Origin: an uncultured Enterobacteriaceae bacterium
GTDB taxonomy: Bacteria > Myxococcota_A > UBA9042
Reading direction: 5' to 3'
DNA length: 64,000 bases
NCBI GenBank assembly: GCA_964438735.1
Contig: CAYTLW010000004.1
Coordinates: 51,953 to 115,952 of the forward strand
The position numbers were made by a program, and so were the translations under genes. The notes under the pieces were generated by a model. The model was not told the DNA's origin. It made no database searches and saw nothing but the letters and a program-made list of their open reading frames with translations. The first letter of the stretch is position 1, and every line of letters starts with the position of its first letter. Below, one piece after another: positions 56,947-58,992 of the stretch.

Positions 56947-58992
56947 ATGACATCTCCGAAGCGAAACAGATCACAGGTTGTCTCGGCACGCTGGTGGCCC
57001 GTTTTGGTGCTCGCCGTCCTGGCAGCGGGGTGTGGTGCGGACGACGGCGACGATTCGGGTACGCCGGCGCCGGTTTGTGTGTTGGCTGCGGATTTGGGCG
57101 ACGCGGATGCGCCCGACTTCACCGCCAGTGTGGGTTGCCAGGGCGATTTCGACACGCTCGCCCGCTCGCCCTGCAGCGCGGCGATTCCAGGGGCGGTGTC
57201 CGCCAAGACCATCATCGACCGCATGGATGATGACGCGCTCTACTTCCTCAACGCGGCGCGTTACCCGATCCACTGGCAGTTCGCGCGCAAGCACCTGTCG
57301 GGTAAGGGCAAGCCGATCGTCGGCTCGCAGAAGTCCTTTTCCCAGGTCGAGTACTACAGCCCGGATCGCCGCTTTCTGCTGGGCGCGGTGACGTACTACA
57401 GCGGGCCGGGCATCTGGGCCTATGAGCTGGCGCCCTATGACACCTCGAGCGTGGAGATGCTGGTGCAGGCCCTGGATGCGGTGGCGGCGGCCAGCTTCTT
57501 CGGCGACAAGCTGGTCTTTCACCCCACCTCGCAAGCGCTGGAGGAGTTGGCGGCCAAGCTGCCGTCACGCATCAAGGTCGTCGACAACGACTCGCTCTAC
57601 GCCGGCATGAGCTTCGTGCCTTTCAATCCCGGCACGGCGATCGGCCAGCTGCGCGTCTATTCCATCGCTGACCTGGAGTCGGGCAAGTCCTTTGTCACGC
57701 CGCGGGATATCGCGGTGCTGGACGCGGTGCCCAACGACATCGCCGTGGTCGCCGGCCTGATCACCGGCCAGATGCAGACGCCGCTGTCGCACGTCAACGT
57801 GCTCTCACAGAATCGCGGCACGCCGAACATGGCCTTGCTGGGCGCCTCCACCGATCCCGCCATCACCGCCCTGGATGGCCGCTGGGTCAAGTTGGTGGTC
57901 ACCCCCTTCGACTACAGCCTGGTCGAGGTGCCCAAAGCCGAAGCCGACGCCTGGTGGCAGGCTCACAAGCCGGACGACTTGAAGGTGCCCGCCCTGGCCC
58001 TGGAGGTGACCGAGCTGCGCGACGCCTGGCTCATCGGTCTGGACGAGATCCCCTCCTTCGGCGGCAAAGCGTCCAACTACGGCGAGCTCGCCCGCATCGG
58101 CCCCAAGGTGCCGGTGCCCAAGGCGTTCGCGGTGCCCATGGCCTGGTACAAGCAGTTCGAAAAGAAACACGGCTTCGACGCGCAGGTGCAGGCCTTGCTG
58201 AAGGATGACAACTTCCTCTCCGATCCGAAGGTCCGCGCCGCAGCCCTGCAGAAGCTGCGCGACGAGATGCGCGCCGCGCCCCTGGACCCGGTGTTCACCA
58301 AGCTGCTCGCCGACAAGCTGACCGCCGACTACAAGGACGTGCGCATGCGCTTCCGCTCGAGCACCAACGCCGAGGACCTGGACGGCTTCACCGGCGCCGG
58401 GCTTTACGACAGCCAGACCTACGACCCGGCCAACGACAAGAAGAATATGGTCGACGCCGTGCGCAAGGTGTGGGCCAGCTTGTGGAATCTGCGCGCCTTC
58501 GAGGAGCGCTCCTGGCGCGGCATCGACCACCTCGGCGTGGGCATGGCGCTGCTCTGCCATCGCGGCTTCCCGGCCGAGGACAGCAACGGCGTGGCGTTGA
58601 CCAACAACATCTTCAACCAGACAGAGCCCGCCTTCTACATCAACGCCCAGCTTGGCGACGTGCCCGTGGTGCGACCGCCGGGCGGCGAGCTGCCCGACGC
58701 GCTGCTCTACTACTACGCCTACGCCAACCAGCCCGTGGTCTGGCTGGGTCACAGCTCCTTGATGCCCGAAGGCGAACACGTCCTGAGCGCCGAGCAGTTG
58801 TGGACCCTGGGCGAGGGGTTGGATGCGGTGCACAAGGCCTTCGCCAAGCACTACAGCAAGGCCGGACAGTTCTACGCCATGGACGTGGAGTGGAAGTTCA
58901 ACACCGATCCAGGTGACACCACCTCGCGCCTGTGGATCAAGCAGGCGCGACCGCACGGCGGTTGGAGCGAGTCCACAGGGGCCTGCAACTGA
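56947..58992 (+). CDS. Lipoprotein with PEP-utilising-enzyme N-terminal ATP-grasp domain (PPDK_N-like), no phosphohistidine swivel domain
   Basis: ATG at 56947. Lipobox VLAVLAAGCG. PPDK_N signature GGKASNYGELARIGPKVPVPKAFAVPMAWY. No GGxTSHAAI motif is present. Confidence 0.65.
   Translation: MTSPKRNRSQVVSARWWPVLVLAVLAAGCGADDGDDSGTPAPVCVLAADLGDADAPDFTASVGCQGDFDTLARSPCSAAIPGAVSAKTIIDRMDDDALYFLNAARYPIHWQFARKHLSGKGKPIVGSQKSFSQVEYYSPDRRFLLGAVTYYSGPGIWAYELAPYDTSSVEMLVQALDAVAAASFFGDKLVFHPTSQALEELAAKLPSRIKVVDNDSLYAGMSFVPFNPGTAIGQLRVYSIADLESGKSFVTPRDIAVLDAVPNDIAVVAGLITGQMQTPLSHVNVLSQNRGTPNMALLGASTDPAITALDGRWVKLVVTPFDYSLVEVPKAEADAWWQAHKPDDLKVPALALEVTELRDAWLIGLDEIPSFGGKASNYGELARIGPKVPVPKAFAVPMAWYKQFEKKHGFDAQVQALLKDDNFLSDPKVRAAALQKLRDEMRAAPLDPVFTKLLADKLTADYKDVRMRFRSSTNAEDLDGFTGAGLYDSQTYDPANDKKNMVDAVRKVWASLWNLRAFEERSWRGIDHLGVGMALLCHRGFPAEDSNGVALTNNIFNQTEPAFYINAQLGDVPVVRPPGGELPDALLYYYAYANQPVVWLGHSSLMPEGEHVLSAEQLWTLGEGLDAVHKAFAKHYSKAGQFYAMDVEWKFNTDPGDTTSRLWIKQARPHGGWSESTGACN

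Follow-up and report, generated by a model that had tools for sequence, protein, structure and literature searches.

A predicted exported lipoprotein with the domain order of glucan, water dikinases, and its lipoprotein neighbours in related genomes

The window analysed here is the whole 64,000-nucleotide stretch of contig CAYTLW010000004.1 (positions 51,953 to 115,952, forward strand), from an uncultured bacterium placed by GTDB in Myxococcota_A. At 56947–58992 on its plus strand lies a gene for a protein of 681 amino acids (aa), hereafter the dikinase, which we consider, with somewhat better than even confidence, to be an active, lipid-anchored extracytoplasmic enzyme. A lipoprotein signal is followed by an N-terminal domain (N-domain), a predicted His-carrier swivel domain, and a PPDK_N ATP-grasp domain, in the order seen in alpha-glucan, water dikinases (GWD). 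A scan of one genome per species found the family in at least 594 species-level genomes or loci, and although this large family keeps its catalytic residues, its members consistently carry a predicted lipoprotein export signal and are encoded next to other exported lipoproteins. If such an enzyme is active there, bacteria would have to make nucleotides available outside the inner membrane or draw on another donor, and a target in the envelope or the environment that has not been described would be phosphorylated. The gene and its parts are the following.

56947..58992, plus strand: whole gene, predicted GWD-like exported dikinase lipoprotein, 681 aa (from the list of open reading frames, third-position G+C content and relatives).
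56947..57033, plus strand: predicted lipoprotein signal peptide, with n-region MTSPKRNRSQVVSAR, h-region WWPVLVLAVLAAG and lipobox A-A-G-C, ending at 57033 with Cys29 (from sequence, heuristic and conservation).
57067..57630, plus strand: family-specific N-domain, aa ~41–228, putatively acceptor-binding, with conserved Cys44/Cys64, K87, D91, H109, R141, E160, D165 and FH192PTS.
57631..57981, plus strand: predicted phosphohistidine-carrier swivelling beta/beta/alpha domain, aa ~229–345, with the candidate catalytic His282 (codon 57790–57792) in QTPLSHVNVLSQNRGTPNM.
58033..58971, plus strand: PPDK_N ATP-grasp nucleotide-binding domain, aa ~363–675, with K374, R470, E476/D477, D646/E648 and Q666/R668.

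On profile alignment and modelled structure, residues ~229–345 are assigned to a phosphohistidine-carrier swivel domain. The most conserved stretch of the dikinase family, QTPLSH282VNVLSQNRGTPNM (codons 57775–57822), lies here, and its residues Q277, T278, P279, L280, H282, N289, R290, P293, N294, and M295 are invariant among 75 relatives. The dikinase alignment was compared by hhalign with an alignment of 20 real alpha-glucan, water dikinases (PF22973 and PF01326, retrieved with a query 83% identical to real entries), and the two matched with a probability of 98.1% (E=1.4e-13) over 304 columns, which begin with the His domain and reach into the ATP-grasp. In this match QTPLSHiNVLSQNRG was placed on PDvLSHVaVRARN of the GWDs, with His282 at the position of the GWD catalytic His. 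The AlphaFold2 model built on the 75-sequence alignment was confident throughout (mean pLDDT 90.8, pTM 0.87); the 360 residues before PPDK_N are no linker but were modelled as two extra well-folded alpha/beta domains, and Foldseek of the predicted structure returned matches to swivel-fold proteins. The first-pass annotation of this DNA, which described the protein as carrying only PPDK_N and no phosphohistidine swivel domain, was wrong on this point: it had sought the motif GGxTSHAAI downstream of the ATP-grasp, and the domain actually lies upstream, with a GWD-type LSH motif. It had itself named the discovery of such a domain on closer alignment as grounds for refuting it, and one has now been found by both hhalign and structure comparison.

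The C-terminal part of the protein matched PF01326 (PPDK_N) with E=7.1e-30 and 104.8 bits, where the cut-off is 27, most strongly over aa 370–570 and also over a second stretch, and PPDK_N was the sole significant Pfam family on the whole protein. The domain named in the first-pass annotation thus held on a hidden Markov model search, and so did its statement that there is no PEP/pyruvate (PEP, phosphoenolpyruvate) TIM barrel, since PF02896 gave no match at E≤1. The protein has the motifs GGKASNYGEL, RFRSSTNAEDL, and MDVEWKF...KQARP, and also all the ATP-grasp residues that bind nucleotide and Mg (the Lys of GGK, the Arg of RSS, the acidic pair of DxE, and QxR). PEP synthase sequences from the PDB aligned to aa ~363–572 and to the C-terminal DIEW...QSRP element only, the MDVEW...KQARP of the dikinase falling on DIEW...VQSRP of PEP synthase. 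The NCBIfam models for PEP synthase, rifampin phosphotransferase (RPH), and PigC/RedH likewise matched through the ATP-grasp part only, all far below their cut-offs.

The residues of the putative active site tend to be kept or lost together. Residues H282, K374, R470, E476, D477, D646, E648, Q666, and R668 are invariant among the 75 relatives. In a wider alignment of 46 divergent sequences, His282 is kept in 40, and all six sequences without it also lack at least one ATP-grasp catalytic residue, compared with 3 of the 40 that keep it (chance of this coupled loss p~9e-6, by our own hypergeometric arithmetic). Such coupled loss would be expected if His282 and the nucleotide site form one catalytic relay, and it implies that the copy in the window is under selection for catalysis.

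The region between the signal and the carrier domain is less familiar. The N-domain is present in 776 clusters at 50% identity, and R141 and D165 are retained in 46 of the 46 sequences of the wider alignment, catalytically dead members included. We infer that it binds the acceptor and takes the place of the TIM barrel of PEP synthase (PEPS) and PPDK, the RIF-binding domain of RPH, and the glucan-binding parts of GWD; it is probably a new fold of ~190 residues that sets acceptor specificity. One relative (P0003, 982 aa) has the unit of N-domain and His domain duplicated ahead of a single ATP-grasp.

The open reading frame begins with an ATG exactly at 56947 and its stop ends at 58992. Its third-position G+C content (0.88) matches that of genuine genes in this ~68% GC window, and relatives with 50–80% identity align over more than 90% of its length; an alternative in-frame TTG at 56848 was judged a less likely start. 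A promoter and terminator scan of the dikinase region gave nothing informative, with neither a Shine–Dalgarno-like sequence nor a promoter evident upstream of the ATG. Read from this ATG, the N-terminus is MTSPKRNRSQVVSARWWPVLVLAVLAAG-C29-GADDGDD, with four basic (K/R) residues, a hydrophobic core of 11–13 residues, small residues at −1/−2 and then Cys29 (codon 57031–57033), followed by Gly at +2. The features of a bacterial lipoprotein signal, namely a basic n-region, a hydrophobic h-region, and a lipobox Cys ~15–40 residues from the start, are therefore all found.

To ask how general this signal is, we used a lipobox heuristic of our own ([GAS]C in the first 60 residues, preceded by an 8-residue window with a mean Kyte–Doolittle value of at least 1.6), which was positive for the dikinase and for 111 of its 120 best relatives, compared with 0 of 120 GWD-type controls. 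By eye, the nine failures comprised three truncated gene calls beginning just before the lipobox Cys, three non-standard boxes (LFLFC, FSNC, and FTRC), two proteins starting downstream of the signal region, and one without an obvious signal. Among divergent full-length representatives (28–50% identity) 38 of 45 were positive, and most of the remainder have a signal-peptidase-I-like or odd hydrophobic N-terminus. Cys29 is at least 90% conserved among close relatives, and the same is true of a second pair, C44/C64. Because the lipobox is common among the relatives and absent from the GWD controls, and because Cys29 is conserved, we read the predicted export signal as a family trait and reject a chance motif. 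The first-pass annotation had called the protein an exported, lipobox-bearing lipoprotein and had considered this an unusual location for a member of the PEP-utilising/dikinase superfamily; both views agree with the sequences of the relatives.

The best 80 loci of the family are mainly from Myxococcota (Sorangium, Polyangiaceae, Byssovorax, Enhygromyxa, Pyxidicoccus, Cystobacter, Kofleriaceae, and Nannocystaceae), and also include Bradymonadia, Fibrobacterota/Chitinispirillaceae, Thermoanaerobaculia, and Phycisphaerae. In public databases the proteins are named "PEP/pyruvate-binding domain-containing protein" or "pyruvate, water dikinase", and the latter label is wrong because the protein has no pyruvate-binding domain. 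Gene neighbourhoods were analysed in a sample of 84 loci. In 63 of them the dikinase is accompanied by a Cys-rich partner lipoprotein of ~300 aa, which shares its strand in 51; the median distance between the aligned parts of the two is 244 bp. Examples of the partner are the following.

L001:12092-13069 (minus strand), L002:10027-11010 (minus strand), L003:10037-10915 (plus strand), and L084:3342-4334 (plus strand): partner lipoprotein family, with the motifs CTLWQRKNPFCNPAC and NVDQHG.

In P0024 the two form a single protein, with the partner C-terminal to the dikinase. A second companion, a six-bladed beta-propeller lipoprotein of the SGL/arylesterase type (PF08450), occurs in 30 of the 84 loci, and both neighbour proteins likewise begin with lipoprotein signals. 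In P0002, the closest relative with usable flanks (80% identity), the order is SGL-dikinase-partner, with gaps of 3–17 bp.

Genes for VTC, DUF4956, or CotH lie within 10 kb of the dikinase in 17 of the 84 loci. In Sorangium cellulosum So0157-2 the order is partner-dikinase-DUF4956-HlyD-like-CotH, with all genes on one strand, and in locus L003 it is VTC-DUF4956-HlyD-SGL-dikinase-partner. A cluster of DUF4956, HlyD-like adaptor, CotH kinase, and VTC polyphosphate (polyP) polymerase recurs by the dikinase module (L049:12051-16288 in S. cellulosum So0157-2, L003:4133-6857, and L086:11488-12618). In two contigs a phosphate-selective porin (Porin_O_P) adjoins CotH. Together these genes suggest an envelope-spanning phosphate or polyphosphate system. 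The set of CotH, polyP polymerase, and DUF4956 is contiguous with Gram-positive pel exopolysaccharide operons as an accessory block whose role is unknown (PMC7112168; PMC12345266). An apparent fusion of PPDK_N and CotH (P0056, 1145 aa) was rejected: its dikinase part is without the last motif and its CotH part has a lipobox of its own, so that a frameshift or a gene-call error has probably joined two neighbouring genes.

Two further families were seen near the module. A dual-specificity phosphatase (DSPc/PTP-SAK) adjoins it in 3 of the 84 loci (for example L002:6098-6703 and L001:8074-8556, both on the minus strand); the L002 copy has its own lipobox (LLCISC), and an exported phosphatase could oppose the dikinase. 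An analogy with SEX4 through this phosphatase neighbour was dropped, three loci being too few. A secreted DUF1554-like family (motifs FSFFVTS, GFGGDLRFG, WRAFLS, and YCFALTP) lies near the module in 15 loci, among them L022:9020-9826 (minus strand), L072:8714-9799 (plus strand), and L077:131-1036 (plus strand).

The surroundings of the dikinase in the window itself are of another kind. A tblastn search of the window for the partner, SGL, the phosphatase, VTC, DUF4956, and CotH found none of them, save for a weak propeller similarity at 63041–63661, where SGL neighbours from other loci match at E=2e-5. These positions fall within the gene downstream of the dikinase.

59129..64000+, plus strand: giant Cys-rich lipoprotein (signal ...LAAGGC) of more than 1,620 aa, running off the window (from translation and Pfam).

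Some 25 Cys-rich repeats of ~45 aa are followed in this protein by an NHL beta-propeller (NHL PF01436, E=1.7e-23; TEN_NHL, E=1e-23), and the protein may correspond here to the SGL beta-propeller lipoprotein found beside the dikinase at other loci. Upstream, three plus-strand genes also encode exported proteins. The one at 54911–56845 is secreted (signal ...ALAWPATADA), with a weak match to apextrin C-terminal (ApeC) towards its end and, at 55609–56190, five tandem copies of a 117-bp (39-aa) unit, DKDTNSTYSGKNFALSNK-CGSG-V-RGVDANGN-VC. That at 52857–54854 is Cys-rich, with MopE-type putative metal-binding motifs and Dictyostelium CTDC repeats, and that at 51456–52691 is a Cys-rich lipoprotein with no Pfam match. 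Farther upstream, at 49394–50932 on the minus strand, is an Amidohydro_3 enzyme (E=2e-35) resembling N-acyl-D-amino-acid deacylase, for which the mechanically called reading frame is much longer than the likely gene. When the Cys-rich neighbours were sought in 83 related loci, two isolated matches only were obtained, so the four-gene Cys-rich block is lineage-specific and no conserved context of the dikinase. The first-pass annotation was right that the gene is embedded in a Cys-rich secreted-protein block, the flanking genes being Cys-rich and exported; the conserved context is instead that of the partner and SGL lipoproteins, and the lineage of the window has evidently rearranged the dikinase module.

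The analysis shows the domain architecture, an export signal throughout the family, conserved neighbours, and the conservation of catalytic residues; catalytic activity, phosphate donor, acceptor, and exact compartment are inferred. By analogy with GWD, PEPS, and RPH, the ATP-grasp domain would bind a nucleoside triphosphate (NTP), and His282 on the swivel domain would accept the beta-phosphate, AMP being released and the gamma-phosphate passing to water. The carrier domain would then swing and hand the phosphate to an acceptor on the N-domain, possibly with the help of the partner and beta-propeller lipoproteins. We think that this acceptor is most likely a surface or extracellular polymer (a glycan) and less likely a small molecule, because of the architectural kinship with GWD, the two lipoprotein companions, and the occasional link to the exopolysaccharide-associated CotH/VTC/DUF4956 set.

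More tentatively, and with considerable doubt, the family can be viewed as the core of an unrecognised extracytoplasmic phosphorylation system, in which a surface-anchored dikinase, partner, and propeller would phosphorylate an extracellular polymer, with the supply of phosphoryl groups or nucleotides coupled in some lineages to machinery for exported polyphosphate (VTC-DUF4956-HlyD) and to CotH kinases. Candidate polymers are the exopolysaccharide of the cell itself and a crystalline polysaccharide of prey or plants, which would be loosened as GWD does starch. If true, such a system implies a usable pool of NTP or phosphoryl groups outside the cytoplasmic membrane of Gram-negative bacteria. 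With GWD as the nearest relative in architecture, and with the exopolysaccharide-associated genes present at some loci, phosphorylation of a polymer is directly testable.

Several points weigh against an active extracytoplasmic dikinase. To our knowledge there is no recognised ATP pool in the periplasm or outside the cell, which leaves the donor unexplained. Predicted export rests on a heuristic and on conservation, and the −3 residue of the lipobox in the window gene is Ala (with Leu at −4) and not Leu, Val, or Ile. The assignment of the His domain depends on profile–profile and predicted-structure comparisons: a scan of the whole protein against Pfam found neither PF00391 (no match at E≤1) nor PF22973, and the isolated His-domain fragment matched only PF22973 (GWD1_pHisD), in register (profile positions 48–109 of 115) but, with 11.8 bits (E=0.19), short of the cut-off of 27; real GWDs score 129–174 bits. 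As to the acceptor, searches with the N-domain found no informative homologues and no similarity to the RIF-binding domain of RPH, and those with the partner gave no Pfam, NCBIfam, or PDB-sequence match, with Ig light chains at E~0.1 only. Finally, the partner and SGL genes are absent from the window, and the local copy may work differently.

Among the alternatives, it is unlikely that the protein is a small-molecule phosphotransferase, acting like RPH but in the periplasm or on the surface to inactivate or activate an antibiotic, toxin, signal, or nutrient bound on the N-domain. In domain order and His motif the protein agrees with GWD and not with RPH, the N-domain is unlike the RIF-binding domain, and a linked Cys-rich lipoprotein partner and a beta-propeller are foreign to known resistance phosphotransferases; the problem of ATP supply would be the same. 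Comparably doubtful is a role in a phosphate or nucleotide economy with exported polyphosphate, in which PPDK-like chemistry would run in reverse or use donors derived from pyrophosphate or polyP, for example to make NTP from AMP for secreted CotH kinases. PPDK chemistry is reversible, and the 17 loci with VTC, DUF4956, or CotH, the gene orders of S. cellulosum and L003, and the porin adjoining CotH would all fit. That link, however, holds in only ~20% of the loci and not in the window, and the protein has no PEP-like donor site of the TIM-barrel kind; water dikinases are effectively irreversible, and we know of no precedent for the use of polyP by PPDK_N domains.

The suggestion of the first-pass annotation that the protein is a non-catalytic pseudo-enzyme or binding module, with an ATP-grasp that is merely ligand-binding or structural, is improbable for the window gene. 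An ATP-poor compartment speaks for it, and such a role seems to exist in the family because six of the 46 divergent representatives (P0264, P0267, P0268, P0274, P0294, and P0346) have lost His282 and ATP-grasp residues yet kept R141 and D165 of the N-domain; these are probably non-catalytic derivatives that still bind a ligand. The window gene and 74 aligned relatives, in contrast, retain every catalytic residue tested, and the coordinated loss in a few members implies selection for catalysis in the rest, so that the pseudo-enzyme idea appears to fit a small side branch of the family only. Least probable is a cytoplasmic dikinase with a wrong start or lipobox call: one gene caller did start the identical protein P0001 inside the h-region, the sequence 5′ of the ATG is uninformative, and the export call is heuristic, but relatives down to ~30% identity have a signal with a lipobox Cys at the same place, which the controls lack, the conserved neighbours are lipoproteins too, and h-region and lipobox would be encoded whichever start upstream of Cys29 is used.

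Dikinases of the PEP-utilising superfamily are, in the textbooks, cytoplasmic or plastidial ATP-consuming enzymes, and no description of an exported PPDK_N or GWD-like protein turned up in our literature search. The closest in architecture to the exported dikinase preferred here are GWD and PWD of plants, algae, and some Planctomycetota and Nitrospirota, which have the same order, a phosphohistidine domain directly upstream of a C-terminal PPDK_N, and no TIM barrel; their catalytic His, part of an LSH motif, aligns with His282, and a VWAS-WN-RA motif is common to both. The dikinase differs in lacking the CBM45/CBM20 starch-binding modules and the helical middle region, in place of which it has the ~190-aa domain, in its predicted lipoprotein signal (found in none of the 120 GWDs), in its score below the PF22973 cut-off, and in carrying RSSTNAEDL at the canonical PEPS-like position, whereas GWD has FRSDSNGEDL elsewhere.

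In PEP synthase and PPDK the order of the domains is reversed with respect to the dikinase, whose His domain (aa 229–345) precedes the ATP-grasp (aa 363–675); the dikinase is also without a TIM barrel or a PF00391 match, is predicted to be exported, ends 6 residues after the ATP-grasp, and scores 103 and 93 with the NCBIfam PEPS models against cut-offs of 598 and 740. RPH, considered together with dikinases of the HpeI/phenylphosphate-synthase type, has a C-terminal His domain and an acceptor domain inserted after the ATP-grasp, and is cytoplasmic; its model (NF041857) gave 55 bits against a cut-off of 999 with the ATP-grasp alone aligned, and structural alignment to RPH was confined to ~265–297 residues of that domain. 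The CotH/VTC/DUF4956 accessory set of pel operons consists of unrelated protein families and is linked to the dikinase module by neighbourhood alone, in the 17 loci where it adjoins it. Compared with these systems, the chemistry is familiar, and the novelty lies in the predicted compartment, the N-domain, and the gene module.

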